Shown here in pieces: positions 22,171 to 62,355 of a stretch of DNA of 64,000 nucleotides (positions within the stretch are counted from its first letter, which is position 1; every line of letters begins with the position of its first letter). The DNA is taken from contig NC_092679.1 in NCBI RefSeq assembly GCF_964355755.1, positions 17,095,432-17,159,431 on the forward strand. The letters run 5' to 3'. The notes under the pieces are model-generated. The model made no database searches. It was given only the letters and a program-made list of their open reading frames with translations, and was not told the origin of the DNA. This stretch comes from Antedon mediterranea (taxonomy: Eukaryota; Animalia; Echinodermata). Both the position numbers and the translations under genes were made by a program.

Positions 22171-22201
<31 letters not shown>

Positions 22202-34745: not shown

Positions 34746-35156
34746 TTGAATTTGATGTGTTATGTTAAAGAAATTGTATCCAAAGCCAGCAGACGTCTGC
34801 ATATATTGTGTAGATTAAGAAAGTTCAATCTTCCGAAATTTGATCTTGTAGATGTATTTAAGAGTTACATAAGACCAAGTGTTGAATATGCTGTCCCAGT
34901 ATGGCATTCTAGTCTCACTAAGAAACAAAGTGATATGATAGAATCTGTCCAAAAAAGGGCTTGCAGAATAATATTGTGTAATGACTACATATGTTATGAC
35001 CAAGCACTCAATGATCTTTCTCTAGACACCTTTTCTGATAGAAGGCGTAATCTATGCTATAAGTTTGCTCTGAACTGTTCAAAAAGTATTCATTTTGGAA
35101 AATGGTTTCCAGTGAAGAATGTAAACAATACCATACCTTATCTCGCTTCTAAATGA
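34746..35156 (+). mobile_element. LINE RT C-terminal fragment (L2/Daphne-like)
   Basis: KASRRLHILCRL...FKSYIRPSVEYAVPVWH...IESVQKRACRII. Confidence 0.8.
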
Positions 35157-35228
35157 ATAATCAGTATATATAACCCAGTACAGCTATGCGTTTTTTTTGT
35201 TGTTTTTTTTTCTATTTTAATATTTTAA

Positions 35229-35854
35229 AGCCCCATTCCCTACGTTTTTTAGATCTAATTTAAGATCACAAACTATATTTAATGTAAAAATAATACTATA
35301 TGGTCCTAATGCGATAACTGTTTTCGTCTTTAAACGGTTAAAAATGTGAAAAATAAATCGATTTTAATAATTATAGCGGCCCGCTATAAATCCCAAAATG
35401 CATTGCGCGCGGATTGATATTTTTGTTTTTCACCTGTAATTCGCCCACTTTTCGATCGATCGTGAAGCCAAAACAAATGGAAGACTCCTAACTTTTCAGC
35501 GAAAATACCGGGTGTTCCCCAATTTGTATCAACGGAGTCTGGCAAAAATAGAAAGACAATTAATGCAGCAACTATACAACGTCAGGCTAGGTATATAGCT
35601 AGCGTACGATGTTCGTACGTTACCGATGTTTACCAGCTAGGCCTACAAAAATAAGCCTAGCTAGGCTAGGCCTGAGACCGTCCACGAGAGTTCGATCGCC
35701 GCGAGCTACTTAGGTAGTGCATTGTTTCTCACTTTTTATCATAATTTACCATAAAACGTACATTTAAGACAAGGAATGACATGGTTTAATGTTTTTAAAG
35801 TGATATATATGTATTATTTTCCAAAAAACGTCCAAAATTGCAGGGAAGGGGTCT
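35229..35854 (+). mobile_element. TTAA-flanked MITE (Kolobok-like), copy 2
   Basis: TTAA|AGCCCCATTCCCTAC ... GCAGGGAAGGGGTCT|TTAA; imperfect 15-bp TIRs. Confidence 0.85.
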
Positions 35855-36052
35855 TTAAGCTAAACTTTTTGAATGTTCCTGTATTGTATTTCTTGTGTAA
35901 ATTGCCTCCTTTTTATATATAACTAGCAATTATACCCGCCCCAGGGAGGGTTTCAAAATTAGTTTAACAGCCTTCTCAGTACATAACATAATGGTCGAAG
36001 TACACTTATAATATAGATTATCATTGGTTTTATACTTTTATACAAATTTTAA

Positions 36053-36678
36053 AGCCCCATTCCCTACGTTTTTGAGATCTAATTTAAGATCACAAACTAT
36101 ATTTAATGTAAAAATAATACTACATGGTCCTATTGCGATAACTTTTTTCGTCTTTAAACGGTTAAAAATGTGAAAAATAAATCGATTCTAATAATTATAG
36201 CGGCCCGCTATAAATCCCAAAATGCATTGCGCGCGGATTGATATTTTTGTTTTTCACCTGTAATTCGCCCACTTTTCGATCGATCGTGAAGCCAAAACAA
36301 ATGGAAGACTCCTAACTTTTCAGCGAAAATACCGGGTTTTCCCCAATTTGTATCAACGGAGTCTGGCAAAAATAGAAAGACAATTAATGCAGCAACTATA
36401 CAACGTCAGGCTAGGTATATAGCTAGCGTACGATGTTCGTACGTTATCGATGTTTACCAGCTAGGCCTACAAAACTAAGCCTAGCTAGGCTAGGCCTAAG
36501 ACCGTCCACGAGAGGTCGATCGCCGTGAGCTACTTAGGTAGTGCATTGTTTCTCACTTTTTATCATAATTTACCATAAAACGTACATTTAAGACAAGGAA
36601 TGACATGGTTTAATGTTTTTAAAGTGATATATATGTATTATTTTCCAAAAAACGTCCAAAATTGCAGGGAAGGGGTCT
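36053..36678 (+). mobile_element. TTAA-flanked MITE (Kolobok-like), copy 3
   Basis: Same termini and TTAA flanks, about 200 bp downstream of copy 2. A degenerate partial relative lies at ~60505-60680. Confidence 0.85.
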
Positions 36679-37011
36679 TTAATATTGAGAAAATGTAAAT
36701 ATCTTTGTATTTCAGCTAAGGCTGCGATGATGATATTGAAATAAATGAAATGAAATGAAAAAAAAAAAAAAATTAGCATTCGAATGCCTAGCGAATGGTT
36801 AGCGAAGGCTATTTAAGCATTCTCCTTTGGTAAGGAGGCTTTACTAATATTTAGGAGTATCAGAGGTATTTATATTTGTCCTCAAGCTTAACTGGAAACT
36901 GAGGAAATTCGGATTATAGGCCCTCCACGGACCCACGGCAGCCAGCAGTGTAGCGCCTACCAGATCAGCACACCGGGAGACGATCCCCTACTCTTTTCGA
37001 ATATTGTACAA

Positions 37012-39840: not shown

Positions 39841-40037
39841 ATGCACTGTTAAGTACACGGGACCAACAGCTTTACATCCCATCCGAAGGACTAGGCAATG
39901 AGAGTAAAGCATCTTGCCTAAGGATGCAATTAGTATGGTACAGATAACCTCGAACCCATGCCTACCGGGGCCCAACGTTGCTTAACTTCGGTGATCTGAC
40001 GAGAACCTGTGTTTCACAACGCAGTATGGCCGTATAC
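39830..40037 (-). mobile_element. 5S rRNA-derived SINE head plus core, fused to the LINE
   Basis: Minus strand reads TACGGCCATACTGCGTTG...GGTTCTCGTCAGATCACCGAAGTTAAGCAACG (5S 5' part), then GGGTTCGAGG, TCCTTAGGCAAG, and CGGATGGGATGTAAAGCTGTTGGTCCC...GCATGTTAAAGAACC. Confidence 0.75.
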
Positions 40038-41101
40038 ATAATACATTAAAGTTACTATTACAAAATAAGTATATGACAAGATAAGATAAGATAAGATAAC
40101 TTTTATTGATCCTCAAAAAGGAAATTCATTGCTCGTCATAATGACACCTAATCCTGTCATTTGATTGTACATTTGTGGATCACTTGATAAAATCTAAATA
40201 CCCTATATTTACGCTCGCAAGCACGTCCTCCAGCATGGTTAAAGCTTGGTTCTTCTACTACAAAACAACGGAGCGACACAAAAAAGTGCTGCATTGCATA
40301 ATCACAAGTGGGAACTGATGACAACGCAGCATTGCTGCAAACATCGCTACGGGAAATCAAATCAGTTTGATTTCACGCAACAACGCAAGGCAAAACACAC
40401 TGAAAAACAGAGTACAGCGCATACTCAAAAGTACGCCGGGTGAATCAGGTCAAAGGCTATAAATACCAGAATGCATCGCACACGGATTAATATTTTTGAG
40501 ATGTGATGCTCCCTTTACGTATATTTGGGGTCTCCCTTTTCATATATTTGGGGGCTCCCTTTTCGTATAGTGGGGTCTCCCTTTTCGTATAGTGGGGTCT
40601 CCATTTTCGTATAGGGTCACTGGTATCTGGTCTCGGGTCTCTAGTTTCGAAACACCCTATAGACTATCTACAAGAGAACATTCGACAGGAGCTATTTTGT
40701 GGTAGTGCATTGTTTTTCTCTTTTTATCGTAATTAATTATGTATGCCCAGGCCTATATGTCATATTTGAAACAATAGGCCTACTGTGTTTGCTGGTGCAG
40801 GTTTATTGTCATTTATGTATTACTATAGACTAGATGATGTCATATTATCACTACCATATTTGGGTACATGACACTTTTCGTCTAGTTTAATAGTGTATAA
40901 GACAGAGCAGATAAGGCATATGTTTACCACTACAGCAGTTAAAACATTTCTTCTGTTAATTGTCAGTTGGACCATAATTGTTAATTGGCTTTTATCCAAT
41001 AAATATAAAGTATTCCAAATCATTTGGTCAGTACTCACGAACCTGCCCAGAACAGGTCCGGCCAAACCAATTTTGGGACACTGCATTCACTTTCCTGTGA
41101 A

Positions 41102-42116
41102 AGGAATGAAGGACAAAACACTATGGGAACTTATTTGGTTCCAAGGGGATTGATTCCTTAAAGCTCCCTAAAGCCTGGTTTCCATAAAATTGCTACATCT
41201 ATGGAAACGCTAGAATTTATCGGGGATCTAGTACGCGAGCGGTAAATATTCTTTGGTACGCGTATACGATTCATCGCAGACACAATCGGCAAAGTTGAAC
41301 ATGGTTAAACTTTGCCGATTTGACTGCGATGAATCGGGGAGCCTTCCCGATTGCGTCGGCGACATCTGCGCGTGTAGCGATTTTAATGGAAACGCTGTAG
41401 CGATTTTAATGGAAACCAAGCTTTTTTGTGTGTGCCATGATTGATGATGATGATGATGTTCTGTATGGGGGGATTACAGACTTCTCCTAGTCTTTAAAAA
41501 CATGTTATTTTTTTATTATACTGTACAGAACTATGATGATTTTTCATTTTATGATGTGACTCCACAAAAAAGAAAAAAAATCAGCAATAGCTGGTATAGG
41601 GAGTGGCAAAGTAAATAGAAAGGTATTAAAGTAGGCTTTACAAAAAAACAAAACTTAACACAATTCAATGAGGGGCCCAGTATGAATTTTATGTGTGAGA
41701 GTTATTTTCGACTATCTAGGGGCGGCATTTAACTAAATTTACTTTGTTCAAATAATCAGTGTGACATGCCTGGCCTGGAGCTCCTGTATTGAAGTGGCTT
41801 GGTGGTTCATGATGCTCGGCTACCAATCAAAGGGTCCTGTCCTTGGCAATTTGCCTAAAATATATATTCTAAAATCCTGGATCCTCTATACATTGTAAAC
41901 CCTGAAATTCCTCTGTAGTCAAGTTTCCCAGAAAGTCTATCCAGGAGTTATAAAAATCTTTTATTCTCTAGGTGTTCTTTGTTCATATAACAATACTCAG
42001 AAAATAACAACATTTAGAACACTTTTAAGTTATTAACTTTTTTAAAAGCTTAGGATTTAAGATTTCTATAGTTTATTTATAAATTTATAAATAAAAACCT
42101 TTGCTTATTAACAATA
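41102..42116 (+). repeat. Segmental duplicate B, with an extra MITE at ~41171-41423
   Basis: Same sequence as A. The MITE, with TIR AAGC(C/T)TGGTTTCCAT, fills a site that is empty in A. Confidence 0.85.
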
Positions 42117-42748
42117 GGGACTTTACAAAACACGACGGAAGCCACGGGACGGTGCTCATGAATAATTTATGCATGAGCTTTAACAAAGTAGGCGGAGCTT
42201 GCATGAAATTTTTTAGGACGATTAGATAACGTTGCCATTTTCCCGTTTACGTAGAATGACTAGAAATAATATACCCTTAAACATACAGTTCAAATTACAC
42301 TTAAACATGGAATTTTCAAAACTCTAATAAATAATATTTGAACTTCTAATTTAATTGTTTAATGAAATAACATTTTTGTTGGGTTAAAATGGCTGGTGTT
42401 AAAAGCTTATGCTATATCACCATAGCCAAGCGATTCAGAAGGCGCCACGAGACAGGGGATCAGAGACAGATACTGCCTGTCGTCGTCCTCGCGCAGGGTG
42501 CGTAACTAATAAAACGGCTATGTTGACTCTATATGATTTTAAAAAGTGATGCAACATGATGATTTTTTTTTGTTTTTAAATAAAATAGAAAATTCACAAA
42601 AATGACGGAAAAGTTATTTTTCTCAGGGAAAAAAGTAAAAAAGAACAATCAATTTTACACAGGAAAATACAATTTTCATTACAAATAGTTAAATTCAGTG
42701 ATCAAATGTTTTAATTTTTTATACTATTCATTTTTTTGCCAATTCTGA

Positions 42749-43197
42749 GTGCCATACTGGCATTCAATTATTGTAGGATCGCTAATTGACACAGATAACG
42801 ATATGAAACACCGAAAACAACTCGCAATATCAGCCTTCAACAACTACAAAGAAATTCTGACGAGCAAAAACTTATCACTAGAAGTAAAAATGAGACTATT
42901 CAATGTATATGTCAGAAACATATTCATGTACAACTCAGAATTATGGACGATAACCAAAAAACATGGATGGATACCCCAGCCAAATTAGCGTTGACAGAAT
43001 TCCATTAGAAAAGTTAACGACCAGTTGGCAGACCAAAAACTACCTGGATAGGAAACATAAACAAAGAACTCAAAAAAGTAAATACATCGATCGCAAAGTT
43101 AATGACAGACCATCAGACCACCGAAAGAGAGTCATGGAAACGATTAGCGTACGCAATGTCTACCCAAGAGGAATAGCGTAACGGATGATGATGATGT
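42749..43197 (+). mobile_element. RTE-like LINE 3' fragments
   Basis: KMRLFNVYVRNIFMYNSELWT motif and a (GAT)n tail. Confidence 0.6.
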
Positions 43198-44056
43198 GAA
43201 AACATATGGCATTAGATCTGACCCTACGGGGATACATTGTATTAGAACTGTTACAGATTAACCCTAAAAATGGCCGTCCTCCTCCAAGATAAATCATTTA
43301 AAAACATAGATGCCTAAATGATTTAATATGTCGAATAATAACTAAAATATCATCGTCTTCTTCTTGTCCCATCATCTTACATAATCTATGATATACTTCA
43401 TAACTATCTGTATCAGAATCAAAATTCGACTACTAGGCCACATTATTCAAATTTGCTTCATATAAGTTATCAGTATCACATCAAATATAACGTTTCCCGG
43501 CTCTTATTCTCCTGTCAATATTTAGTGGTAGCGATGGCCTTCGAGGCACTTAGTGACCATCCCATTGTTATATATCCCACATTCAGTGGATGCGGATTCT
43601 GAGGTGTGTACTCATAGGGGGCAGTGAAATAGATTTTGTGTGGAATTATGGAATTGTGTGATAGAGGCAAGCAAGTGCATATAGTAAAAGCACTATTTTT
43701 GTTAGGCCTATGCATGTTAAACCTGGGCACTGACTAAACTCAAGATCAGTACTTTTGAGTTATGATACACTATCATAATTGACATATGCCAAGCCCGTAG
43801 CCAGGGGGGTTCGTAGGGTTCGAACGAACCCCCTTTTTCCTGAAGTGCCCTTTTAAACCGTAGATGGGCAGCCGTCGAGAGCGGACGTATTATTTTCTAC
43901 TCTCTCCTCATCGGAGTGTATTTACACAATACGATCCCTTAAAATGCCTGGATTGTTGAAGTGTTGAAAGGAGGTGAGGTTTAGATACCATATTTATGTT
44001 TACTGTGGTGTTTAATAATTATTTTAACGACATTATCACGATATATTTGAGAGAAA

Positions 44057-45535
44057 ATGTCTAAACAACATAAGAAATCTACAGTGAGCCATGAGCCGGT
44101 CACTAGTGAAAATTTGCATACAGCGGGAGACAATGGTGCGGGTTATCAAATACAATGAAGATATTAATGTCTTCAAAGTCTATAGCTGATATGAAGAGTT
44201 GCATATGCGATGTGCTCACTAAAATGGTAGCAATGGAGAAAGATATCGCAATACTCAATAAGGAAAATAGCGGTTTACAGAAGGAAATTCGTGACTTAAA
44301 AACTGATATGCAGGAAAACGCAGACTTTCTCGAGACGCAAATGATTGATGTAACTGAGGAGAAAACACAATCCATAGCTCAAGAAATGGAAGATATTAAG
44401 GACAAGATTGATAACATCGAGGGACGGAAAAGGAGAAATAATCTGAGATTTGTAAATATTCCCGAACAAGCCGAAGACGGCGAAGGTTCCACAGGTAAAT
44501 TTCTACAATCTTTCATAAGTAAAACTATTGGTGTTGACTTAATGACCGATGATATACAGTGTGCTCATAGAGTGCGAATCAAAACAAAGTCAGGCAGGCC
44601 ACGACCCATCGTTGCTTTTTTCCTTAGGTATATTCAACTAAAGAAAAAATAAGGAGGGCTGCCAGAATATCTAAGCCAAAGTTTAAGGGGACTAACGTGT
44701 ATGTTAACGATAACTATACCAGTAGGGTACAGCTCAAGCGGAAAGAATTGAATGTCGTACTAAGATCACTTGGGGAAATTAATGTTAAATGCTGGCTCCA
44801 TTTTGATAAACTTCGTTTTGCTGACAAGGATGGTCACCTGCGAACCTATATGTTTCTGATTCTCAACTACATGAATACTTTCCCGAGCCACCTGCTGCTA
44901 CCGGCACGACTCCTCAAGGGGAAAACCAGCCCACTACAGATGACTAGAACCTACGGGATAGAGTAATCTCATCAATTCCAAAGAAGTGAACATTATTACA
45001 TTATAGAGAAACTAACATTCTTTTTTATTTTATTTATGGTATTCTGAACTTCAAACCTCTTTTCCATTAACATTCAGAAGCAATCGTATACTTAATTTCA
45101 TCTGCAATTTTGTTTCCATATAATATTATACATTGTATTTTGATGTTCATATTGTATTGTATACTTAAATTCATTTACAATTTGGTTTTCATTTATATCA
45201 TATTATATTATATTTTGATGTTAAACATTTTTTTTAATTGTCTTTTATTTTTTCTTTTCGTTGCAATTTTATTATAATGTATTCTAATTAATGATTATAT
45301 TGACGGTCACTTTAACAATGGTTATTTTTATCAAGTACAGTTCTATTGACAAATCAACAGATTATTTTATGTATGATGGCTGATGAACAAAGTGAAGACA
45401 ATGTACCAGTAAGAAATTGTAAACCTTATTCTTTTAGTGAATTTTGTAATTTTATCTGTAATAAGCTGATTCAGTTTTTTCTATATCTCATTTCAATATC
45501 AGATCTCTCAACAAAAACTTCCGACGAATATTCAT
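44057..45535 (+). mobile_element. LINE 5' part: degenerate ORF1 (coiled coil plus RRM) and the start of the ORF2 endonuclease
   Basis: IDNIEGRKRRNNLRFVNIPE...IQCAHRV...RPRPIVAFF, then YVNDNYT; at ~45475 FSISHFNIRSLNKNF. Confidence 0.75.
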
Positions 45536-45563
45536 TTTAGAATATCGAAACAAATACTAAATA

Positions 45564-46149
45564 CAGGCCCGTATGCAGCATTTATAATGGGGGGGGGGGG
45601 GAGGGTGGGAGCGAAGCGAGCAACAATGGCTGGGGGCCAGGGGCAAATTTTGCGTTATTTGACGTTCTAAAGACTGATTTAAGACTCTCTGTTGTGGCTT
45701 GGGCTAGTTGAACGATGGACACCAGAACTTAACGCTTTCATGATGAGGCCAACTCAGACAGCGTCGTACGACGCTGTCTGAGTTGGCCTTCCCTTGTTTA
45801 GGCGCCGTATTCGATAGTGTCTGTATTTCCAGCAAACACTTTACCGCGTACCGCGTACATGAAGCGCTAAGCTATTGCTTGTCGTCACATGATTGACTGC
45901 GCATGTTTTACATCGAGTTTGTAGTCAGTTCAGATTCCGTAATTTAATTACCGGTATTTTTTCATTTTATATTAGCATATTTTTGTTTGTATACCATTGA
46001 TAATGTAAATTTTGTATATATATAATGATATTGTCCTTAGTTAAACAAGACAAGAAAAAATACCAACCGAGGAAATAGTGGACCTTTTGGGACTTGAGGG
46101 GGGGGGGGGTGCGTCTGCACCCAACGCACCCCCCCTGGATACGGGCCTG
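45564..46149. mobile_element. hAT-like MITE
   Basis: CAGGCCCGTAT ... ATACGGGCCTG termini, a 6-bp flanking repeat TAAATA, and a central 44-bp perfect palindrome. Confidence 0.65.
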
Positions 46150-47010
46150 TAAATAGTCATTTTTGTTTGAAGATATTCTAATTACTATGGTTTTGTAGAA
46201 AACTTTAAAGTTCTTCACTTTTAAAGTGGGAGGAGGAGGAGTCTACATCCCTTCAGGGGGATGCCTAGTGCCCGGATTCATTTTGACCGATTGCTTTTCT
46301 AGGTTGGTTATTCATTTTGTTTGACAGACTCCAAGGTTGATTGAACTCCCCATTGCTTCAAGGTGGGGATGGGATCAAATGTCTGTAAATTTCCCGGGTA
46401 TCTTTAATAGAACATAAGAACAATTAAATGAATGTTTATGAGTGTGTGGTATATATAATTTTATTCGGTGAAAAATGAAGGTTATGTTTCATGAGGCGAC
46501 AGGCCAAGTGAAATAATTATGATCTTTCATCTTTTCCGAATTAAATTATTTATACAAAAACTAATTATATAAAAACATTAATTCCGGTCTTCAGCTGGTT
46601 GCTATATTCTCCACGCTCTCTCTGGAGCATGTGGAGCGATTGATAGGGCATTTCATTTTTATCATGTGACCCACAATCGTCCAATCAAATGACAGGAATC
46701 TATTTAGGTGTTATATAAAATAGATTATTGAAAAAGTGTGTCTAGAAAATTCTTTTATCTTTTGCAATTGGGGGACTCAGTATTGTGTGGTTTCTCTGAA
46801 CTTGCACAATCTATACGATTGTCTACAATATGGACAACAAAAAAAACAATTGATAAACACACCTGAACATAGACAAGAGAAGATGGGCTGTTCGGTTGCC
46901 TTGCACAAAACGTACACGTGAAAAAGTATTTATTTCTAACCAATCAAATTCTTTGCAAGGTCCTGATTGGCTGAGGATATACTCTATTTTTTGTATAAAT
47001 TTGTCCGTTT

Positions 47011-47145
47011 ATGAGGCAGGGTCACTTAGTTTGTTTGCTGTTGTTTGGTTTGTTATTAGTTTGCGTTGTTGTGTTGGTGCCCTCATTGTCCGTAAAACTA
47101 CATCAAGCCCAGATATTCTACATGCCGATTGGTGCAGACGCTTGA
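47011..47145 (+). CDS. 44-codon signal-anchor-like ORF upstream of legumain copy 3, probably its detached N-terminus
   Basis: Translates as MRQGHLVCLLLFGLLLVCVVVLVPSLSVKLHQAQIFYMPIGADA*. It has a long hydrophobic stretch and stops 31 nt before the out-of-frame ATG of [10 protein letters not shown]. Confidence 0.5.
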   Translation: MRQGHLVCLLLFGLLLVCVVVLVPSLSVKLHQAQIFYMPIGADA

Positions 47146-47176
47146 AAAAATTTGATCTCTCCAAAAAATCGAAACG

Positions 47177-50100
47177 ATGAAGAATTGGGCTCTTCTTGTA
47201 GCAGGGACAAGAGAATGGCATAACTATCGGCATCAGGTATTCAATCTTATAATTTTATATTTTCTTAAATGTTTAAATTTTTTATTAGGTGATCATTTAG
47301 AATAAAATGATCACCTATTGTTATTTTACAAAATCTTTATTGTTGTTTTTTAGTTATCCGCATTCAGCGGATAACTCCTTGTAACTGTCCTGTTTCATCA
47401 TCTTTTTTTTTCTTTTCTGTATTATTAGTTATCCGCATTCACGGATAACTCCTTGTAACTGTCCTGTTTCATCATCTTTTTAGTTATCCGCTTAGTAGCG
47501 GATAACTCCTTGTGATTGTAGTGGATCAATATTTTTTTTTTTCTGTATTATTCTTCTTTCTTTCCCGTTTTTTTGTGGCTCACGTATCTCTAAAATGTGT
47601 AAACATAATATTTCATAACTTTGACAACATGTGGGCATTTACGTAAAGTTGTGCACCTGCATTTTGTACAAGTGCTAAAAATGGTAAAAAATAAGGCCTT
47701 TTTAAAATGAATATAACTCTTCAGAATGGCAGGTGACCCCCGATTTTTTTAACATATTATGGAAGCCAATAAGTTGTAGATACAAATGTATATACACATT
47801 AGACGTACAAAATGGTATGATGTCATCAAATGGCCACTTGAATTAAAAAATTAGTAATTTTTATCTTTTTGTGTGGGTTATCACATTCAATAGAGCGCAT
47901 CTCCGTTATTTAAGCCCGATTTTTGCACAAATTTTAGTATGTGCTTGCTCAATTAATTATCTTTCTCATGAGTTGTCAACATTTTTATTTTGATGACGTC
48001 ATCATGCGTAAAAACTTGAATAACCTAGGTCGTGTAATTTCAGCTACACCATACATTTGAATATCTTATAGCTCTTCAGAATTAAAGGTGACCTTGAAGA
48101 TTATAACTTATTATGAAAGCTGATGAAATGTAGATATGAATTCATATCAAAATTAAGCCTATCGGATGTTGTGATGTTATCATATGGCCAGTTGAAGTTA
48201 AAAAGTAGTTTTTTAATTTCTTTAGTCGAAGTTATACAAATTTCAAAGAGCGCGCATTGCGCTTCTACGTGTCAAATTCTCTTCCAATCCTTATATTTAT
48301 CTGCTCAAAATTCATTATCTTTCGAAATTGTCATCTTCGAGTTTATTTTGATAATTTCATCATACCAAAAATTTAGAACACGATGTGGGTCCCGTAATTT
48401 CACCTATGCTACACTGTATATAGATATACAGTATACTGTACATTATTGTATATGTCACATAATAGGTACAACTCAGCGCTATAAGCGTATATGCATCATG
48501 TCATAGGATGGCGTACATCAACTTTTTACGATGGTGTGTTAACGTACGTGCATGTTTAAAAAATGTTAATTTCATTAAAATGATAAAAATGATCACCTAT
48601 AATTCGTCAAAGTGACGAATTAAATTCTAGTTTATGTATAATATTGCACAAGACCAAAATTACAGCTTACAATACTTTGGCAGCATATAGGCCTGATCAT
48701 TTTTGTTGATCAAACAAAGTTATTTGATCAGTCTCCACGATTTTATTAATTTTATATTATTAAACAAGGTATGTCTTTTAAAAAACAAGCAATACGTGAA
48801 CCACAGGTATGTGTTACTTTCAGTGCTAAAGGCACAATCAGTAACTATTAACATCTAGGAGTACCTAGTCTAGGTATTCCAGATGGAGTTTTGGCTTAAA
48901 TATTAGTAAAAAGAAAAACATTTTGGCACATATTTTTATACATACTACTTGAGCTTGTAAACTCTGTTTGGTGAAACACATACAAGTCGCATGGTTTGAG
49001 ACCAAGAATTCTTGGTGCATATAATTATCCGGTTGACTAGTTTCAGCTGCATGCCATTGGCTACTCACTCATATTTTAATATGCATTTTTGGAAATTTCG
49101 AAGATTCAACAACTAAGATGATGTGCATCATGGATTAAAGAATAGAAGGATATGCATCGACGTGAGATCAATGGTTCCTTGACTCTCGCCGACAGACCGC
49201 GGACCGCCCACAATGTTACAGTTTAATTAACCGCATGGTAACAACGAAACGGTCGCGTGCCCAATATATTGTTTACTGCACATGTGCAACGACATTTAAC
49301 CTTGTTGGCTACGCTTCTTTCGCGCGTTCTTTGGTGGCATGATGTTTGTAGATGGTCTGTCACGCCAAAATCAGTCCGGGCCAAAATCGGTCCGGCGGAC
49401 CAGTTTTGGCTGCCAAAATCAATCCGGGGGACCATTTATGGCTGCCAAAACCTGTCCGGCCGGACCAATTTTGGCCGCCAAAACTGGTCCGGCCTGGATA
49501 AAATCGGTCCGGGCAGTAGGACTGTTTTTGGCCGCCAAATATGGTCCGGTCTTACAAATATATGGTGCGCAATATGAGTCATAATGTATATATCATTAAA
49601 AAAAAAAGGCCATGATTAGTCATTATATTGAAAACTATGGGGTTTTATTTGTTATTTTAATATTATAAATTAAGCCTGTTTTTTTTATTATCATTATTAG
49701 TAGTAACTCATCAATAATAAGTACTAATTGTTAGGCTTTTTGTATACAATATGTATCTCTGCCTGTTTTTAATCCATTTTGTTCTTTTTTAACATCTTCG
49801 TTTCCCCATGATGTTAAAAACAATTTAATTTATTAATTATTTATGGTTAATCAATCAATATATCAATTCAATACAATTATTAGAAAAAAATTATCCAATA
49901 TTGATTAGGCTGAGGAAGGAAAAAGGCCTCAATCATAAATCAAATCTAGCTGGCAATATCAGCGTCTCATACCCGTTCATGTGAGTGTGTGGCAGGCCGT
50001 AATATGAGTGAACACCTAAGTCATGTTTTTAGATAAAATACATTTATTTATAGTATTTATCCGACAAGATAACTTACTAATATATATCATGGGATATTTT

Positions 50101-53100
50101 TATAGCCATAAACAATTTAAAACAGCATCATAGGCCTAGTAATTCAATTAAAATCGACAGAAGAAAAGCCCGGACCGATTTTGGCAGTGGCGGACTGCTT
50201 TTGGCCACAATTTTAGAGCCAAAACTGGTCCGGCCGGACCGATTTTGGCCCCGGACCATATTTATCGTGACAGGTCAACTATTGACTATGTTGTAGGCCT
50301 AATTTAGTAATTAGTATAGGTTTCTGCCGCGATTGATCTACGCTAATGATTTTTTATGATTAAAGTAGCATTTTATGACCGTAAATATATCAGTCATATA
50401 TTCGGGAGTCATTTTATAGTATGCATTTTAAAATAAGCCTTGCAGCTCGTTTTAGACACTTATTAAGTGTTTTATTATGAGAAGCATACCTGCCACCCCA
50501 TACTGTACAACAATAGTCTAATGACGGCCTTACTAGACTAGTGAATAGTTTGTTCATGCAGCCTTGTGGGATACAGTCGCGAATCCGATTTAGCATGCCT
50601 AGTTTAGAAGAAACTGTTTTGTTCACGTACTCGACATGCGGTGACCAACTTAACGTTTCGTCAATTATGACACCTAAGCATTTAAAGGATTTTACCCTTT
50701 CAACTGAATTGTTTGCAATTTTTAGATTAAGGTTGTTAGTAGATGTTTTCTTTTTCGATCCAATGATTTGATTTAGTTTTGTTTGCATTTATGGTGAGTT
50801 TGTTTCTGTTTGCCCAATTGTGTACTATATCTAATACTATATTTAAATTTGTTTCAATTTCGTCTATGGTTGGTAAACTACATGTCAAGGTTGAATCGTC
50901 AGCGTACATGAACAACTTACAGTTTTTAAGAATACAATTTTGTAAATCACTTGTGTAAATGATAAAAAGCAGTGGCCCCAAAATCGAACCCTGTGGCACA
51001 CCAATGTCGTCGCGACTTCGATTTTGTGCCACCAATGTTTACATATTGACTGCGATCACTTAAATATGATTTAAACCACTCCATTACGGATGGTGACATG
51101 CACATACATTTGAGTTTTTTCATTAACTGAGTCAAATGCCTTGCTCAGGTCTATGAAAACAGTACCAGTCATTTTACCCTGTTCCATGGCATGTAAACAC
51201 TCGTTGGTTAAGTCATGTAGTGTTGTTTCAGTTGAATGAAACGGTCTAAACCCTGATTGACAAGATGGGATCAGCTTGTTCACATCAAGGTACGAGTAGA
51301 CGGCCGAATGTACCCACCTTTCAAAAATTTTTGAAACAATTGGTAGAATGGAAATTGGCCTATAATTATTAGTGTTACTTTTGTCTCCTCCTTTGTGAAT
51401 AGGTGTAACAGAAGCCTTTTTCCACTCTGTAGTGTAATGTCCGCATCGTATTGATAGGTTTAGGACATGGGTTAATGACTTTGTCACGTGTGGGTAAGCT
51501 AGTTTTAGCATTTTTACACTGACGTCGTCAGGACCTGTTGCTACCAGCAGACATTACTAATATTTGACTTTGAACAAATTCTTCTGTGATGTCTGGCAAT
51601 GTACATTGTTCGAGTGAATTTGACTCAGACGTTTTGGTTTGATTCAAATGTACTACTGGCTGTAGCATTCGCCATACGTTCACCGATTGTGGAGAAATGT
51701 TCATTCAATATATCAGCAATGTCGTCAGGATTGTTGATAGTAATTCCAGTATTGGAAATAATACAATTTGGGGCTGATTTTGTATTGCTTGGAAGGACCT
51801 CTTTAAGTTTCTTCCATAGCATTGACGAATCACCTTTGTTCTTTTCGATGGTTGTTTTAAAATATTCACTTTTTTTGGTCCGGATTTTATCAGTAACGTT
51901 ATTCCGTAGCGTTTTGTAGGTGTTCCAATCTATTTCTAAACCAGATTGTTTAGCCTTTTTATGCGTGCAATCACGTTGTCGCATAAGTTGCATTATTTCA
52001 CCATCAAGCCATGGCAGCGATGCGTTTCGGACGCGTTTACATTTGGTTGGTGCGTGATAGTTAAAAATACCCATAAACAACGAGGACCACACTTTCTTAA
52101 CGCAAATACAGTTAAGTACATTATTCCATGGTGCACACATTAGGTCGTATTGGAGGGCATCATGGTTTATATCTTTGAAACGTCTAAAGTGTAATGAACG
52201 AACGTTTCCGTTTTTAGGAGTTTTCCAATTTTGGATACCGTACACAACATAATGGTCACTAATTAGAGCAGGCAATACACCACTTTCGCTAACAAGTTCA
52301 GGATTTGAGCTAAATATTAGATCGATTGTGGTGTGTGTTGATTTAGTGACTCGAGTTGGCTCATTAATTAATTGGGTCATTTGGAATTGGTCAAAACATG
52401 AGGTTAAAGGATTGGTACTGTTTTTTTCATTAGACATGTCAATTTGAGGCACTGAGTTTTAGTCCCCTATTATCGTTTCTCTTTTTGGCGCTCCATAGAA
52501 ACAAAAATATTGAACATTGAATAAGTGAAATTTGCAAAAAACACACATGTAAAACATTAATTTAAGGATTTATTTGTTACTTTTTTATGTGATTCTTTCA
52601 TTGAAGTACTCATGAGGTATACTTCTAAGGTGTGGTATTCACACGATAAAGTTAGTTATCAAATTTGGAGTCATGTTTAATTAAAACATTCTTTTAAAGT
52701 AATTAGAAAGTAAAAGAAATTATTTGTCTTTCTGTACTTTACATGCACAAAACTGCCCTCAATTTCCAATACCTGGCACAAAGAGCTGTAGTAGAGATAC
52801 AGTTCTACACTGCAGGGCAAGGAACAACAACTAGAAGAAGAAAAATAATGTAATTTTTTATTTATGTAAGTTTTATTTGTAATTTAATAGGCCAATGTTT
52901 GCCACGCCTACCAGATACTGCATCGTAATTGCATCCCTGATGAACAAATTGTTGTGATGATGTTTGATGATATAGCAGATAATGTAGAGTAAGTTCACTG
53001 TCTTTGTTTATGACTTACCTACACTGCTTACAATGAGTTGAGTCTCACCATTTTCCTAGAGGGGCGTCGGCCTGATCTTGTAATAGGGAAGATCGTCATA

Positions 53101-56100
53101 AGTATAGCTTATTCATACAACACGTCGTATAAAGCAAAGCCATGACAAAAACCCGCTATTACTCTGTAATTTAGTTAGTGCCCTTTAGTTTCTTTTCTTT
53201 GCTTTGTTGATTCCTCACACTGCATTAGTTTGTTTTTAAATTGTTTTATTACAAACACAAATACCATGGTGGTGGTGGTGGTGGTGGGGGGTATATTCAG
53301 GAAGGCAATGGGATCAAACAACCTCTATAATATTAAAGTATCAAAAAGTATTGTATGATCATTCTGATGGATTTTGTTTATTTTTACTGGTTGTTTTTTA
53401 AATTAGTAGAATACTGTATGGTCAGTTATTCAGTTCCAGATTCAGTTATAAAATTTGTTTTTAGAAATAAGTATGACGGAGTGATTATCAATCATCCTGA
53501 TGGAACGAATCTTTACAAAGGCGTTCCTAAAGACTATACTGGCTTGGTATGTATTTAATTATTTTCTTTTATTACATTAATTTAATCTTTTTAAATTAAG
53601 ATTTGTTTACATGTACTGTATAAAAACAGGGGTCCAGATATGGCTTGTGCACACTGTAAAGAACGCATACTGTAGCATCATTTGTGATGAGGTTTTCTGA
53701 TTCAAATTCAGCCCCTGATGATTACAGCAGTGGTAAGGAATTTTTGGCGTTTACCTGGGGACGGTTAAGCTTGTATTTACATTTTTTTGACGACGATTAC
53801 TATTTGTACACGCATTTAAAATTCATTGTGATTTCTCCGACGACACAAAATCTTGAGTCTAGTTAGCTGGGGCAACATTTTTCATTTTGGCATAGTCCTA
53901 CTTTCTCCTCTACTGCTTACACATATTTTTAACTTTTAGTATGGGCAGTTCATTACAATTTGTTTTGTTTTTTTTGCCTATTTAATTTTAGTGCGTCGGG
54001 CTCTTATCAGTTGATCTCAATCTGCTCCCTAACACAGTGGTGAACCATGTTGGGTCGTTCCACTTTACTAGGAGGTAACTTTCAGACAGTTAACAAAAGC
54101 TTTTAATAAAAGAAAACAAAACAATACAATAGGTACAAAAGAACAATGTTAGAGAACTATTTATTAGGAGACTACTCCCATTAAAATAACTATGGTACAT
54201 TAACAATAAGTATTGTGTAGAAAAAAAAAGCCCAAAAGGGCGGAGGCTGATACAGAAGGTAATAATAGAATATCATACTGAACTACGCCCGATAGGTAAT
54301 CTGTTCCATAGGCATAGTGCGTACACTTAATCTGTTAAATATTAAATTATTTCTATTTTTGTAGCAATCTTCAAATATTGCACAAACAAATAAAAGTAAT
54401 AATAATTTTAGTAGTATACAATTCATTGAAAAATCACCAAAACAAATTTAAAGTGCAGTATAACGGTATGTAAATGCTAACTAGTACAATATGAATATAT
54501 TATATATATTACATAGAGATACTAATAATATAATATTAATTTGACATTAGAAAACAGAAAGGGAAACCATATAGGTCAAATTCAACGTTTTGTGCTACAA
54601 TCCTTTTCCTATTAGTAAAATGGACGAGTCCGCCAATACGGCAAAAGCACGCTGGTGGTTTTCAAATAAACCAAGTGTTTTAAAACTACTTATATAAAAA
54701 AATCTGTTGCCTTATCTTAAATACATTACATTACAAATAAGGGATAATAAACTCTTAACTTTCGTGAAAAAATAAAGCGTTTTGGATAAGTAGTTTTTCA
54801 GCAACTGTAATTCTAGTTGTAACGTTACGTTCTGACTGCTCAGGAAAGGTTGGACGACTTCGAACATTTTCGCCTATCCTTTAACACTAGCCGGTCACTG
54901 ACAAACCAAAACACTGCTTCAAAAAAGGGGCTGTGCCGACGAAGTATCTGAACCAATCACATTTTACTTTAGGTCATTAGAAAGCTTGATTGATTAGCTT
55001 TTGCATGGTGGAACAGCCAATATCATTGGATAACTAGGTCAAACGTTATGAACGTTTTTGTAAAGATCTCAACAAATTGGCAAAACAAGCCTATTCTTTA
55101 ACACAGGGCAATTTTCAAATCGTCTAACTTTAAAAATCAATGCCGACGACGTTTTAAGTTTTTTTAAATTAAAAATAACATGACATCGTAGGTACTTAAT
55201 TAGGCATTACAATGTCGAAACAGCCATAAAAATCGGTCAATTAATAACAAAGTTACATTGAAAAAACCTAAAAAAAATAGCTGTTTTTCGGTGATTTCGT
55301 GCCGTTTAGCGGAAATCGCCCGGATTTTTGGGTACATAAAACAAATTGTAATGCTCTCTTTTCATATTAATATTATTATTATAGTAGCATTGATTTTGTT
55401 TAGGATGTGACTCCAACAAACTTTCTGAATATTCTTCAAGGGAAAAAATCAGAAATGGCATGTATAGGTAGTGGCAAAGTTATAGACAGGTAATATCACA
55501 CGATTTTTATATTTCAGATTTTTTTTCCCAATTGGAAAAGTTACAGTACATGGATTGAGCTTTTGATTTTCAATGAGCATGAAACAAAAATTATGAATAT
55601 TCTCGCATTTATGTTATTAATATTTATAACACACCTGAGTAGATTCTTTCTTTTTTTATTTGATTGGCGGAGTGGGTATGGCATAATATTCAACAGAATA
55701 CTCCAATGAATTCATACGTCACCAATTTTGTTATATGTAAATGCAATTTTGTTAAATTAAATACAAGTTGAATTCTGTTATGTACTATCATTTGTTACTT
55801 ACAATCAGGCTGAGCAACCACGCAAGACACAAAGATCAATTTCGAAAAAGAATGGGAAAATAATATGTGGAGGTGCAGCATTTATGGAGTATATTTACAT
55901 CCCGTGTCAAAATGTCACAACTTATCGCAGTTTTAGCGGGTATTTTAACTATACTGGATGCTAAGCTCATCGCTAAAGGGGATCCCTACAGTACTGTACC
56001 TTAGTTTGATGACAAATAAAAATCCTATTTTCACCTCATGAAATATATTGCTTGCAGTCGTAAATATACATTATTTGTATACTACTGCACAGTGAGTCAA

Positions 56101-59100
56101 CTTTCTGAAACTACAGAGCCAGCTTCTTTTACTAATCACTAATAAATAACACTACTATACTATTACTGTTATTATATCATGATGGTATAGTACTCCTAAA
56201 TGTAATGTTAAGTGTGATTAAAATGATTTTATTTTTATTATTTCATGTTTAGTGGACCCGAAGATAACGTTTTTGTGTATTATACGGGGGACGGGGAAAG
56301 CGGATCCATTTCCTTTCCATATCAGGAATGGGTAAGCATTGCTTAATACATTATCTGGAAATATAAACAATGAAAACTAATTAGTAATAGTCAAATTGGA
56401 TGAAACAATTTTCCTGAATCCTTGGATTTGTTAAATAATTTATCATTGGGCTATGCGATGCAATTTATCGCAATCTACTGGTTGCCAGAAGACAAATTGA
56501 AGTGGATGAATTTGAGAGTTTCAAAGAGTTAGAGTAGACTAGAAGCCTAAAACTAATATCCAATATTATTAGTAATATAGTACTACTAAAATAATTGTTA
56601 CCAAATTAAATTATTATTATTACAGAAAATATAATTATCACTATAATAAAATATTATTTTTACTTGTTAACTGCTGTTAGTGTTAGCTTGGCCGCGGCCA
56701 TTCCGGAGTCCACATTTCAAACTTATTGTCACAAAAGTAATTTTTATTCAGCCTCTGTGTACAGGATCGCAACGAAGGTCATTCAATTACTGAAGCAGGC
56801 AGTCAGAGATAAGCTATGGACTAGTCCATTTCCAGAGGGGGTTAATTAATGCGATGTGCATTTTTCATAGAAAGTGAACATACAAAACATACTATGTATT
56901 ATAAAGTATTCCCTCTAAATTAAACATTTTACAGTATTATTAGAGCATTGCTATAATTTAAATTCATTTAACACAACCACCACTTTACGCTAGCTGCACA
57001 TCCCCGCTCCGGTCTATCCGGTCAACATGGACTGTTCCAAACCTCATAAAAACCCCGATGAACGCTACACAACAGCAGAGGGCTTTGATTGACTAGCATT
57101 TTTAACATACGATTATACAAACAATATACAAGTACACTCAACGATACTTTATCTACAAGTTAATGAAAGCTATATTATACCTACTTAAAATCCAAAAAAG
57201 TAGAAAGAAAACGAAGTATAAATAAGGATAATCAAGTGATAATGTCAGCATAAATACGGACGTAAAACGAGGATTTCAAAATAGCGCGTGTATAAAAGGA
57301 TACAACCAGAATCTTTTGAGAAATCTGACGAGCGAATTCGACGAATCAGAGGCGGTTTCTTAGATATGTTAATCAGAATTAAATAAGGAATCGTTTGCAG
57401 GAACTCCGGTGAAATTCGTAGCCCAATAACGTATTCTACTGAGTTGATTTTGTGAACAAAATTCGCTATAATATCCATACGATGTTTCCGGTTTCACGCA
57501 GTGAAAATGGGCGATAGGCACTCGCGTTCTTTCGTTGTCCGGAAAAATTACTATCATATTTGTAAAAAAATATATATCATTTAAAAGAATATTAAATTTC
57601 CAAACAAATGGAGCAAACTCTGGTGAAAATCGGACCATAGTAAGTGGGTCAAATAATACGAAATATGCTCCAAAACGCTGATTCTCTGTGTTTTCGGTAG
57701 CGGTTGGGGCGTATTGAGCGAATTTTGACACCAAAATAAGTTTGTAATGATTGAATTACTTGGGAGCATACTGTAGTGCCATAGGATAGGAGCTTAGCAA
57801 CATGCAGATCTGCAGTATCTTGCGCAGAGTAGATTATGCGCTATATATCTTTGCTTGACAGTGTAAACAATTTACTGCGGGTCAATTTTATGTGGGTTTT
57901 TTTTTTTAGCTAAAGAAATCTGAATTGAATGAAGCATTGACTTATATGCACAAGGCAATGAAGTATGCAAAGGTATCTGTATTTTAATATATTTCTGAAA
58001 TGTATAATTATTATATTAATATTTGAAGTTTCAATAGCTTATTCAATAAATCTAACATCAAGAAACTTCATCAGGAATAAAAAAATTAAAATAAAATTTA
58101 CACTAGTACAGTGTATACTGTATAGAAAAATGGAAACCATGTAATTGTGCAGACATTACACCCTTAGCAACTTCCTTCCACAACAATATTTTCGAACACC
58201 TGGGAACGCCTAATTGCATAATATAATATCCTCTGTACATATTTTATTGTTCTGTGTATTTTACTTCATGTTTTAACATTTTACTGATTATAATATATTT
58301 TTATATTATGTTGCCATGAGAAAAACCAATTTCAGATCTTTCGTTGACAAACTATTTGACAATAAAAATAATTATCTTGTATCTTGTATAGAAAACCTAA
58401 ACAATTATACTTTTTTTTCACCATATTGACACCACTAAGTTTTTGCTCTTTCAGATGCTATTTTATTTGGATGCAGATTTTGGTGATTCAATGTTTGCCA
58501 ATCTTTCATCTTCAATAAATGTCTTTGCCACTGCTCCTACTGTACGTCAATATGCCTTTTACTACAACAGCACCCTACACGCGTACTTGGGTACTCTGTA
58601 TGGTGTCAGTTGGATGGAAGACTCTGATACGGTTAGTGAAATGAATGAATACATCATGAAAAAAAATATTAAAGGGAAGGATAATTTGTTATCATTGTCA
58701 TATTATTATTTAGAACGACCTTGGTCAAGAAACCTTAGACCATCAATTTGATATAATGCGTAAAAGAATGTATAACCGCCGCGCAAAGAAGTTTCGGACC
58801 GAGAAGTTTGGGGACGAGAAGATGGGTCACCTTAAAGTTGGAGATTTCCAAGGACATGCTGGTAAATCATTACCTTGTGTGGTTTCTACTGACGTAAGTA
58901 AAAGTATCAATATCAATGTTATAAATCACAGTGAACCTACAGTAGCCCATCATACCATTCTCATTGACAATTACCCAAAGGGTCTGTTGAATCGGTGACG
59001 ATTCGACCTGGAGACGATTCAGCCCATTCAACCAACAATGATTGTTAAATTACATTTTTTAGGTATTTATCAAGTTATTATTTAGGTGTTTAAACTACTC

Positions 59101-60353
59101 TTTAATAACATATGATATTGCCAATTTATGTTGATATACAGTATATAATAAGATATATAAAATAAATTACTAAAAAAACTTAATTTTTTATGCAAATATT
59201 ATTTCTTTTTGTGCACTTGCTAAACGGCCAAGAGAGGGTGTAATTTGTTTACATCATTCACGTAGCTAAAAAATGATAATTTTCGGCCATGTTTTAGGCA
59301 TATTTAAAAAATATTTTATTGCATCATTATCCCTAGTACCCGTGTAGTAATACTATCCTATAGTCTCTCTGAGAAAAAGTCTTATAAAATACATATCAAA
59401 GCCGATAAATATAAGTGGGCCGAATTGACCTGTGCATAAGTATAGCTCGTTGTGATTTCATTTTAAAACTTGCAAAAGGCATATTGTTGCTTACAAATTC
59501 CGCAGGAATACCATGTCTCGCGAATTCAAGATTGGAGCATCAACAGTATGATATTCTATTATTGTAAATCTGGCCAATATCAATGACATACTGATTAATG
59601 CACAGACATTATACTGTTTCTGACTTTCAATTGATTAGGCAAATTTTAAAATACATCCTAACAAAAAAAAGAAACATGTTCAGGCCTCTGCTTAAAACAC
59701 CATTTAGAATGCACACATAGTATCTACCAGCACATTTGTACAGTACCTATGGTTTGTTCTATTTCAGCATGAAGTCATGCCATCTCATGAAATACCAATG
59801 GCAATCCTCTATCGTAAGTTGAGCAAAGCAACCTCTGTAGAGCAATCGGAGGGAATCCAGGAGGAAATCCAGAAGAAGTTTGCAGCCATGAAACAAGTAA
59901 GCAACATACACTTTAGCAGAGAGAACAGGTCGCCATTTATGCAATTACTGTATTCTTATCACAGTATTTAACAAGTACATTTTATCATGCTATTGTAGTT
60001 ACACAGCGATATCTATAAAACATTGAAGATGTATTAGGTGGGGGTTGGGAAAGAACTATTAAGAATTATATTTACAGTATCATTACTTACTAGGTCATAC
60101 ACGTATAATTAATTCTCAATAAAAATTTCAATTTTAAATTTTAACTGTTCTTCATACTATACTACTGTATTACATGTAGTAGTATTATAGTTGTTACATG
60201 TTTTGATTTTATACACAAGGTATGCCCTACCAAATTCATAATTTACGGTTACAGTACTTGTGTAACAGTTTATAATGGTGTATACTAAATTTGATTTTCT
60301 TTTTTTCTATTTTCAGAATGCTAAGAGCAATTAACAACGTTTGCAAGAAGTAA
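47177..60353 (+). CDS. Legumain-like copy 3, predicted catalytically dead paralog (~340 aa from MKNWALL); could alternatively be a recent pseudogene
   Basis: Exons 47177-47236, 52891-52988, 53465-53546, 55404-55489, 56253-56331, 57910-57972, 58455-58631, 58714-58893, 59768-59896, 59999-60030, 60317-60353 (1023 nt, open frame, same intron phases as copy 1). FTDHG is changed to YTGDG, EACES to DADFG, and LGDLYS to LGTLYG. Confidence 0.75.
47284..48630 (+). mobile_element. Helentron/HINE-like non-autonomous element in intron 1 of legumain copy 3
   Basis: 5' hairpin TAGGTGATCATTT..AAATGATCACCTA, 3' subterminal AAATGATCACCTA, hairpin AATTCGTCA-AAG-TGACGAATT, CTAG end, and T-rich target. Confidence 0.7.
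49358..50272. mobile_element. TGT...ACA MITE with GGTCCGG subterminal repeats (Ginger-like)
   Basis: TGTCACG ... CGTGACA termini and 4-bp TSD GGTC. Confidence 0.8.
50400..52480 (-). mobile_element. Degenerate CR1/L2-group LINE ORF2 (endonuclease end, linker, RT)
   Basis: [47 protein letters not shown] and MYADDS across several frames. Confidence 0.9.
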
Positions 60354-62355
60354 ATAAGTAAAGTGTTACTGGATTGGAGGAAAATACCTCTTTCTAGACA
60401 CAGGACTATTTCTTAAAATAGCAGCAAACTAATAGCATTTTTTGGGTAATTAGAGGTTTATGTAGTATAGTATATACACAGAAGTTAATATCATTAAACT
60501 AAATTAAAGACCCATTCCCTACAATTTGTGACATTTTGTAAAAATAATGCATATATATTACTTTAAAAACATTAAAACAGGTCATTCATTGTCTTAAATG
60601 TACATTTTGTGGTAAATTATGATAAAAAGAGAGAATGCACTACCTAAGTACTGTAGCTCGCGGTGAATGTACCTCATGTTTTATACACAGAAGTTAATTA
60701 ACTGTTCATTAATAACTTTGATATAAATAACTAAATAATGTTAGTTTAACTTTTAGAGGTTCATTTACAGTATTATACACAGAAGTTAACTAACTAAATT
60801 AATCACAGGAATTATTGCTAAAGCATAGTTTACTGATGAGATGAACCAATAGGGAATAACTCCCATACAATTCCTAATAAGTTTTTCATATGATAAATAA
60901 TATTATATTTGTTTTAATCAGATGTTTAGTATTATACAGTACATGGAATTTAAAATAAAATTAATCATGAATCAAAACACGAATTTAGATTGTTTAAAAC
61001 AATAGGAATTCCATAGGTTCCCTAAGTGTGATGATAATATAAAACTCAGAAACAAGTAAAAAGGGACTATTTGGTTTTGCTTCTGAACTTTTACCAATAA
61101 AGTAATAATCATTAGTAACTACACTAAGGTAATTATTAGTGAATTAAAGGATCAGCCAATATTTGATTGAAATATTAAAATATACTTTAATAAGTACAGT
61201 AAGAGTAACTTCCACCATGTATTTACATGATTTATATCATCATAACAGTATAGCTTTATATCACCATAGAGGAATTATCTTGAAATAATTCCATTTGGAT
61301 CCTAATATTAGTATAGAATAGAAGAGAAATTTTTCTTTTTTGTTGATCCAATAGATTGAAAGTACCAAGTCGTTGTAAGTACCATTTTCAGTACTTTCGA
61401 TCTATTGGATCAATAAAAAGATAAAGATTTCTCTTTTCTATGGAGGAATTACTTGCTTAATTTAAATGCTAAAAAAGATTAAATAAACCATACACTAGAG
61501 ACAATAAATTTTTACTTCTATACTTACAGTATCAAACCATCTAAAAAAAGATCTCATTTCTGGTAATAAGTCACATTTAAGGTTGAATTTAATTTAAATG
61601 AGGATAAAATGATGTATTAGCATTATTATCAACATTTATTTTCCTACCTGAAAATAACAATATAATGCATAATATTTTAACCCAGTGTTTTCGCATTTTA
61701 TATGGATTTATTACATCAATAAAGTTTTTTCATACTATTAAAATTGTTTTTATTTTTATTTATTAAACTTTACAAGCACTAGAGTACTTTGACTTGCAAC
61801 ATAGGCAGAAGTCACTGTATCCCAGGGTCTTAACTAACAGGACACAGATAACAAGCAGTTATACAGACCTGCCCGCCAGCTTACTCAGCAACTCGGTTTT
61901 CGGGGTTTCTTAAAAAAAGGACTCATCAATTCTTCTCCCGATTTAATTTTATATACTATTCAATCCACACATTATACTCCAATGATTTATGAATATATTT
62001 AATTCAGATCTTTGCTAACTACCTTCATGCGCGGTCCGAAAATAAACAAAAAAAGCTAAAATGGCTATCGCAACGAATTTAGTTGAAACCAGGAAGTCGC
62101 AATGTGATGACTCACCAAAGCCGGAACTAAGTTTACCATGCCAATGTTTAAAAATCTACGGATGAAATCCAACATTTTGTTTTAAAATCCTTCATGATAT
62201 CTACCTATTAAAGAGAGAAGAATGGAACAACATCTGCTAAACTGTTGTAGAATACCTATCACGGTACACACAGAACAGCTTGGGTAAGTAACCGACAAGA
62301 GTTGGTGACAAGCGTTTTACATTGTGTCTACCTATTCCAGAAATAAGCACAATTT

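Follow-up and report, generated by a model that had tools for sequence, protein, structure and literature searches.

The 64,000-nucleotide stretch of Antedon mediterranea DNA analysed here, referred to as the window, carries three legumain copies in tandem, all on the + strand. Copy 3 has Asp codons where a legumain has its catalytic His and Cys, and the question raised by the locus is whether this copy encodes a protein that is still in use and, if so, of what kind. The explanation that we put forward, with about as much confidence as doubt, is that copy 3 encodes a live, non-proteolytic, cytosolic or nuclear pseudo-legumain of ~320-340 aa, whose rebuilt cleft binds a new partner.

The two neighbouring copies provide the setting. 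Copy 1 (8470-23484, + strand) is an intact legumain of 433 aa with 12 coding exons, a signal peptide, a full LSAM prodomain and the catalytic dyad His149/Cys190 (copy-1 numbering). Our gene model is identical to its NCBI protein record, both the Pfam C13 and Legum_prodom domains were matched, and run X5, presumed to be RNA, contained a spliced contig with copy-1 letters at a depth of 675. Copy 2 (24657-41625, + strand), lying between copies 1 and 3, is a broken relic consisting of part of exon 1, an exon 2 frameshifted by a 2-nt insertion, a 16-nt piece of exon 3 and, from exon 4, two fragments with deletions (31449-31498 and 41575-41625). A deletion of ~17 nt common to both exon 4 fragments implies a further internal duplication. 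Over the 48 nt of exon 4 that were compared with copy 1, copy 2 has 3 differences and copy 3 has 5. Copy 2 is thus nearer to copy 1 in this exon and is already frameshifted and deleted; it is an internal control for the speed and manner in which a dead copy decays at this locus.

Several repeats were also observed in the window. A tandem array with a 56-bp period and ~98-99% identical units (18777-19844) lies just 3′ of the copy-1 catalytic-Cys exon, and a long array with a 37-bp period and a strong G/T skew (24778-27272) directly follows exon 1 of copy 2. An element of ~630 bp is present at 11593-12224, 35225-35851 and 36045-36675; the three are 98% identical, with two inverted relative to the first, and the element is probably a recent transposon. 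An older fragment of it lies 3′ of copy 3 (60475-60666). Intron 1 of copy 3 holds, on the minus strand at ~50850-52450, a multi-copy sequence that by eye resembles a decayed LINE-type reverse-transcriptase fragment, and palindromic MITE-like elements occur in introns and flanks at 9200-9420, 14684-14893, 4418-4568 and 23111-23254.

Copy 3 (47177-60353, + strand) is represented at NCBI by a ‘legumain-like’ protein-coding model of 323 aa, XP_071963261.1, which has the same MKNW start as our model and no LSAM domain. Coding exon 1 (47177-47236) begins at the first strand of the catalytic domain and retains Asn42, Arg44 and His45 (human numbering). It is followed on the same strand by exons 2 (52891-52988), 3 (53465-53546) and 4 (55404-55489). 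Exon 5 (56253-56331), longer by 3 nt, has GAC in the His148 slot and Gly in the Asp147 slot. After exon 6 (57910-57972) comes exon 7 (58455-58631), shorter by 9 nt, with GAT in the Cys189 slot and with the equivalents of Glu190, Ser215, Ser216 and Asp231 all altered. Exon 8 (58714-58893), longer by 15 nt, encodes a new basic loop of 13 residues (58759-58797) in place of the conserved TNLSHV segment, and exon 9 (59768-59896), longer by 12 nt, encodes the end of the activation peptide and the first prodomain helix. Remnants of exon 10 (59999-60037, omitted from the NCBI model) and exon 12 (60317-60353) follow on the same strand; the latter contributes NAKSN-stop to the NCBI model and still has 11 open codons in the ancestral frame.

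GT-AG splicing of coding exons 1-9 gives an open frame, all 4 of the net changes in exon length are multiples of 3, and copies 1 and 3 have their exon structure in common. A sequence-only reading of this DNA had claimed that all 11 exons are open and all indels multiples of 3. This holds for coding exons 1-9 (+3, -9, +15 and +12 nt) and fails at both ends, where a TGA lies upstream, exon 10 is frameshifted and exon 11 is absent. The same reading had the intron flanks aligning with those of copy 1: the acceptor flank that it quoted is real, but the overall alignment is weak, with identities of 0.43 for acceptors (controls 0.38) and 0.38 for donors (controls 0.31).

The changes at the catalytic positions are as had been described. 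CAT 17715-17717 of copy 1 aligns with GAC 56290-56292 of copy 3 (FTDHG to YTGDG), TGC 18559-18561 aligns with GAT 58476-58478 (EACES to DADFG), and alignment to human legumain places the two Asp residues of copy 3 at His148 and Cys189. The pocket segments are likewise altered as claimed, ESSYACY to VRQYAFY and LGDLYS to LGTLYG. That CAT ‘became’ GAC and TGC ‘became’ GAT is, however, one reading only: Asp does stand in both slots, but direct replacement is not required to put it there. In the His slot, an inserted GGG together with deletion of CAT moves the old Asp147 codon into place; in the Cys slot, loss of the Cys codon with a later GAT insertion moves in the old Glu190 codon, now Asp. Such compensating pairs of 3-nt insertions and deletions need fewer substitutions than direct codon replacement. 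Since they fit the DNA, the Asp/Asp symmetry may be a by-product.

Among 120 aligned legumains, His is found in 119 and Cys in 119, the sole exception being copy 3. We also assembled 296 other legumain-like proteins, with 6 of 208 further hits excluded as non-legumain, and none of the 296 has Asp at both catalytic positions. The Cys slot holds Cys in 292. Asp occurs in none of the other 4, which are fragments of 85-112 aa showing Gly, Ala, Ser or, through misalignment, Val. At the His position, 258 carry His, a further 37 lack coverage and 1 is an exon-skipping artefact. The three short fragments with Gly, Ala or Ser at the Cys position, which come from other sources, are possibly independent dead legumains or pseudogene fragments.

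These results bear on whether copy 3 could be a new enzyme. The two Asp residues, with nearby acidic additions (Glu187 to Asp and Gly192 to Asp), might form an aspartic-type dyad or a metal-binding site on the clan CD fold; both catalytic-slot loops are unchanged in length and the fold is predicted to be intact. Against this, both Asp residues are explicable as shifted neighbours of lost codons and the motif occurs in no second lineage among the sequences searched. We know of no clan CD precedent for an aspartic-type or metal site, and we consider the proposal very unlikely. The same small chance attaches to its extended form, in which a clan CD cysteine protease would have become an Asp/Asp aspartic-type or metal-dependent cytosolic or nuclear hydrolase that discarded its cap and took a new specificity from the basic loop.

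The surroundings of the dyad have been remodelled as well. Arg44, His45, Ser216 and Asp231 are S1-pocket or regulatory residues of legumain, and the sequence-only reading had Ser216 and Asp231 shaping S1. In the accessible text of PMC8491156, catalysis and the oxyanion hole are attributed to Cys189, His148 and Gly149, and a regulatory role to Asp147, Glu190 and Ser215; these last three completed our S1/regulator set. Copy 3 retains 2 of these 7 residues (Arg44 and His45), and of the residues named in that text all are altered except Gly149. In the c341 loop, whose tyrosines are named in the accessible text of PMC9579014, Tyr217, Tyr220 and Tyr228 are retained and three residues are deleted.

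The main proposal of the sequence-only reading was that copy 3 is a secreted or lysosomal decoy for cystatins or Asn substrates, or a regulator of copy 1. Retention of the equivalents of Asn42, Arg44, His45, Gly149, Tyr217, Tyr220 and Tyr228 is in keeping with such a role, and an inactive cathepsin B paralogue that binds cystatin is a precedent (accessible text of PMC7054455). The equivalents of Asp147, Ser215, Ser216 and Asp231 are, however, altered; with these changes and the c341 deletion, a P1-Asn loop would probably not dock. A secreted decoy for Asn substrates or cystatins is unlikely on a pocket remodelled in this way, and the 5′ end of the gene adds to the difficulty.

An in-frame TGA (47153-47155, + strand) lies 8 codons 5′ of the copy-3 ATG, and there is no AG between the two at which an acceptor could lie; consequently, no in-frame signal peptide can be read. 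The 30 nt 5′ of KNW align with copy 1 and carry a 3-nt and a 5-nt deletion, which, judged from this alignment, appear to have given rise to the copy-3 ATG. This ATG coincides exactly with the beginning of the catalytic domain and has A at -3. Two out-of-frame ATGs lie 5′ of it. A hydrophobic upstream ORF of 44 codons (47011-47145, + strand) ends in TGA 47143-47145 and a second, of 7 codons (from 47122, + strand), ends at the same TGA; neither is joined to the legumain frame, and a multi-copy contig covers 47094. In 42001-47180, no counterpart of the copy-1 signal-peptide DNA was found (score 25 versus 28.8 ± 3.3 for shuffles). CCAAT, ATTGG and TATAAA-like motifs were seen 5′ of copy 3 at 46940-47120, beside the multi-copy contig, and possibly form a promoter that a repeat has supplied.

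The hydrophobic ORF just 5′ of copy 3 might be counted in favour of a secreted decoy, and we considered it as a signal peptide. It was rejected because it is out of frame, ends in a stop and has no Pfam match. With the signal peptide gone and Asp147, Ser216 and Asp231 altered, the decoy and copy-1-regulator roles fit poorly, and we regard them as distinctly unlikely.

The 3′ end of copy 3 is broken too. In exon 10, 1 nt is missing at about 60021-60023 and homology ends after ~27 nt; read through, the exon reaches a stop at 60035-60037. Exon 11 is absent, and exons 10 and 12 are 318 nt apart versus 1097 nt in copy 1. Three possible 3′ splice forms would give proteins of 323, 330 or 340 aa, and most of the LSAM prodomain is missing in all of them; Pfam PF20985 (Legum_prodom), matched by copy 1, has no match in copy 3. 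In the NCBI model exon 9 is spliced directly to exon 12, which is then read outside its ancestral frame; this join may reflect RNA support.

The broken ends might themselves be disabling lesions, in which case copy 3 would have spent most of its history under selection as a pseudoenzyme and would recently have died or be in the course of being lost. The frameshifts and deletions at both ends, the lack of signal-peptide DNA within 5 kb upstream and the example of copy 2, a neighbour in the same cluster that did die, all speak for this possibility. On the other side stand the ATG, which has A at -3 and coincides with the catalytic-domain start, and the protein-coding NCBI model. We consider recent death somewhat unlikely, but it is the main rival of the explanation that we prefer.

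Neither the Asp codons nor the lesions in the exon 10-12 region are likely to be assembly errors: where listed there, DNA contigs from runs X1, X2 and X4, which are from one sample and possibly from the assembly's own source, show no difference from the window. Run X5 had no listed cover on copy-3 exons, to which we attach no weight. The ratio of copy-3 to copy-1 exon contig depth in these three runs was 0.34-0.66, an uncalibrated measure that does not equal copy number; the depths were 148 versus 256, 5.6 versus 10.5 and, at 55453, 19 versus 29, again uncalibrated. About half depth, uncalibrated as it is, counts towards recent death or loss, and could reflect presence of copy 3 on one haplotype only. 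The runs, although from one sample, disagree on the contig at 57355-58256; this may be a second allele, which would count against recent death.

Searches for a counterpart of copy 3 in other organisms yielded none. With exon 7 as query against longer proteins, 1 of 13 candidates was confirmed, and this was copy 3 itself. The best 120 relatives found with the full protein all bear the dyad apart from copy 3. A search of 1.84 billion representative sequences returned 77 hits, all lacking the Asp motif; 0 of 84 candidates from metagenome contigs were confirmed as an orthologue, and the ESM Atlas returned ordinary C13 clusters only. The same searches that found no copy-3 orthologue gave no named legumain from another crinoid either.

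The duplicate had been described as young, which our estimates contradict. Over 307 codons, copy 3 is separated from copy 1 by a dS of 0.57 (Nei-Gojobori) or 0.61 (codon model) and a dN of 0.31-0.33; copy 3 is old. Pairwise omega is 0.53 overall (lnL -2030.4 versus -2036.5 at omega = 1). A uniform dN/dS near 1 was not found: exons 1-4 are constrained, with omega of 0.23-0.29, while exons 5-9, at 0.67-0.79, are not distinguishable from 1. Gene conversion as the cause of the conserved exons 1-4 is not supported, the maximum-likelihood dS being 0.60 there versus 0.58 in exons 5-9. Most of the change lies on the copy-3 side. In a 28-protein tree its protein branch is 1.59, a long branch with the broken tail included, versus 0.17 for copy 1. 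For the 127 differences between the two copies, the derived state was assigned to copy 3 in 77 cases and to copy 1 in 12, and was ambiguous in the other 38. With dS split equally, the copy-3 branch would average an omega near 0.9, a value that alone would look neutral.

Where the changes fall tells a different story from that average. The comparison used 112 alignment columns in which copy 1 and no fewer than 90% of 94 homologues have the conserved residue. Copy 3 is altered at 29 of them, 16 of the 28 in active-site loops versus 13 of the 84 elsewhere (p = 3.8e-5), the list of loops having been drawn after the changes were known. When loop 261-269 was counted as part of the site, the figures became 21 of 33 versus 8 of 79; at these 79 conserved non-site positions dN is 0.046 and dS 0.39, and 7 of the 8 changes score positive in BLOSUM62. 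A clustering test without any site list gave p = 5e-5. When only residues named in two papers were counted as site, 5 of 10 were altered versus 24 of 102 (p = 0.079), a weak enrichment, and addition of four further S1 residues gave p = 0.035. Positive selection at the active site is not demonstrated, because dS is elevated there as well (dN 0.69, dS 1.11).

Neutral simulation, with 1500 runs at each of d = 0.15-0.4, predicted 5.6-11.8 stops in the copy-3 core, where there are none (P(0) ≤ 0.002), and 24-49 changes at conserved non-site positions, where there are 13 among 84 (P ≤ 0.0007). Neutral decay since duplication is rejected for the copy-3 core. A history of active protease followed by neutral decay fares no better, as 16 of 28 site changes at the non-site rate of 13 in 84 has P = 5e-7. 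An ordinary pseudogene of either history could draw on the gene-wide branch omega, which would lie near 1, and on the broken ends. The absence of stops and a conserved core far below neutral expectation make it extremely improbable, and the lesions of copy 3 are at its termini only while its divergence is strongly non-uniform, which is not the pattern of a pseudogene.

The absence of stops and the scarcity of core changes, together with the clustering of the changes that did occur, indicate that the fold was under selection while the active site was dismantled. To this extent the sequence-only reading was right to prefer selection over neutral decay, but the duplicate to which it appealed is neither young nor frame-preserved at its ends. 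Purifying selection, as read from a coding sequence, is past selection and says nothing on present function. For recent death the constraint is one of time: with the core free of lesions, the stop rate suggests a dead interval of d < ~0.08, a quarter of the branch.

The fold itself appears well preserved. Copy 3 matches the whole Pfam Peptidase_C13 domain (E 2e-82, 276.9 bits, cut-off 22.8). An AlphaFold2 model built on a 96-sequence alignment had a pLDDT of 94.4 and a pTM of 0.93, a confidence that leans on an alignment of active legumains. The model has a TM score of 0.94 to 4nom, and up to 0.95 among legumain structures; with mammalian legumain structures it shows 43-48% identity at an rmsd of 0.9-1.7 Å. 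Copy 3 is a C13 homologue by fold and descent that lacks the dyad, S1, signal and LSAM features of an active legumain. Having the enzyme fold, as modelled, without the catalytic residues, it is classed as a predicted pseudoenzyme.

According to the accessible text of PMC8491156, a legumain catalytic domain that lacks LSAM is, owing to its acidic surface, not stable at neutral pH. The loop charge of copy 3 is +4 versus -3.6 ± 1.8 in 94 homologues. Neutral drift can account for the shift in loop charge from -5 to +2 (P 0.10-0.37), so that adaptation to neutral pH is not demonstrated, and adaptive neutralisation of the acidic surface was not taken as support. Basic loops would suit a cap-less cytosolic protein; drift alone can produce them.

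We believe that a pseudo-legumain outside the lysosome route would account for these observations as follows. Purifying selection maintained the reading frame and structural core of an old tandem duplicate from which the His/Cys dyad, the signal peptide, most of the LSAM cap and a number of S1 and regulatory residues have gone. The losses of dyad, signal peptide and cap may be read as a single move to another compartment: a protein that has no signal peptide would be shut out of the ER/lysosome route, where alone it would have needed its catalytic site and the disulfide-bonded LSAM cap. The caspase-like fold would then have been kept as a binding scaffold for a partner other than the usual Asn substrates of legumain, and the new basic loop might be a nuclear localisation signal or might bind an acidic partner.

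Dead protease paralogues are common, but the catalytic Cys was kept in 292 of the 296 other legumain-like proteins. A natural legumain without dyad, signal peptide and cap would reveal the uses of this fold without catalysis and outside the lysosome. Human legumain occurs in the cytosol and nucleus in disease (accessible text of PMC9579014), and the question of such uses arises for the human protein as well. The reach of the present case is limited to one gene, in one species, with a predicted protein. A literature search, mostly without subscription papers, found no described animal pseudo-legumain of this kind.

Compared with legumain itself (asparaginyl endopeptidase; MEROPS C13, clan CD; PDB 4nom, 4fgu, 4aw9), copy 3 has the domain and fold in common. 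It differs in having no His148/Cys189, signal peptide or Legum_prodom match, in the alteration of Asp147, Glu190, Ser215, Ser216 and Asp231, and in a basic insertion in the loop after the last catalytic-domain helix. A variant of Schistosoma mansoni Sm32 with Asn in place of the catalytic Cys is full-length and secreted. Like copy 3, it is a natural legumain without the nucleophile, but it is a single substitution whereas copy 3 is a remodelled, truncated paralogue. The accessible parts of PMC6107103, PMC9209485 and PMC2867827 contained no fluke inactive-legumain cases.

Outside the legumains, cFLIP is cytosolic, conserved across vertebrates and heterodimerises with caspase-8 to regulate it. 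The pseudo-caspase cFLIP(L) (accessible text of PMC7586951) is, like copy 3, a catalytically dead paralogue with a clan CD fold. Copy 3, in contrast, is known from one species, and the compartment proposed for it is not shared with copy 1. The inactive cathepsin B1 paralogues TrCB1.5/1.6 of Trichobilharzia regenti are, like copy 3, lineage-specific dead lysosomal cysteine peptidase paralogues beside active forms, and are described in the accessible text of PMC7054455 as highly expressed and cystatin-binding. These clan CA proteins, as far as that text describes them, have one catalytic change, apparently intact pockets and a retained pro-form, whereas copy 3 has a rebuilt pocket and has lost both ends.
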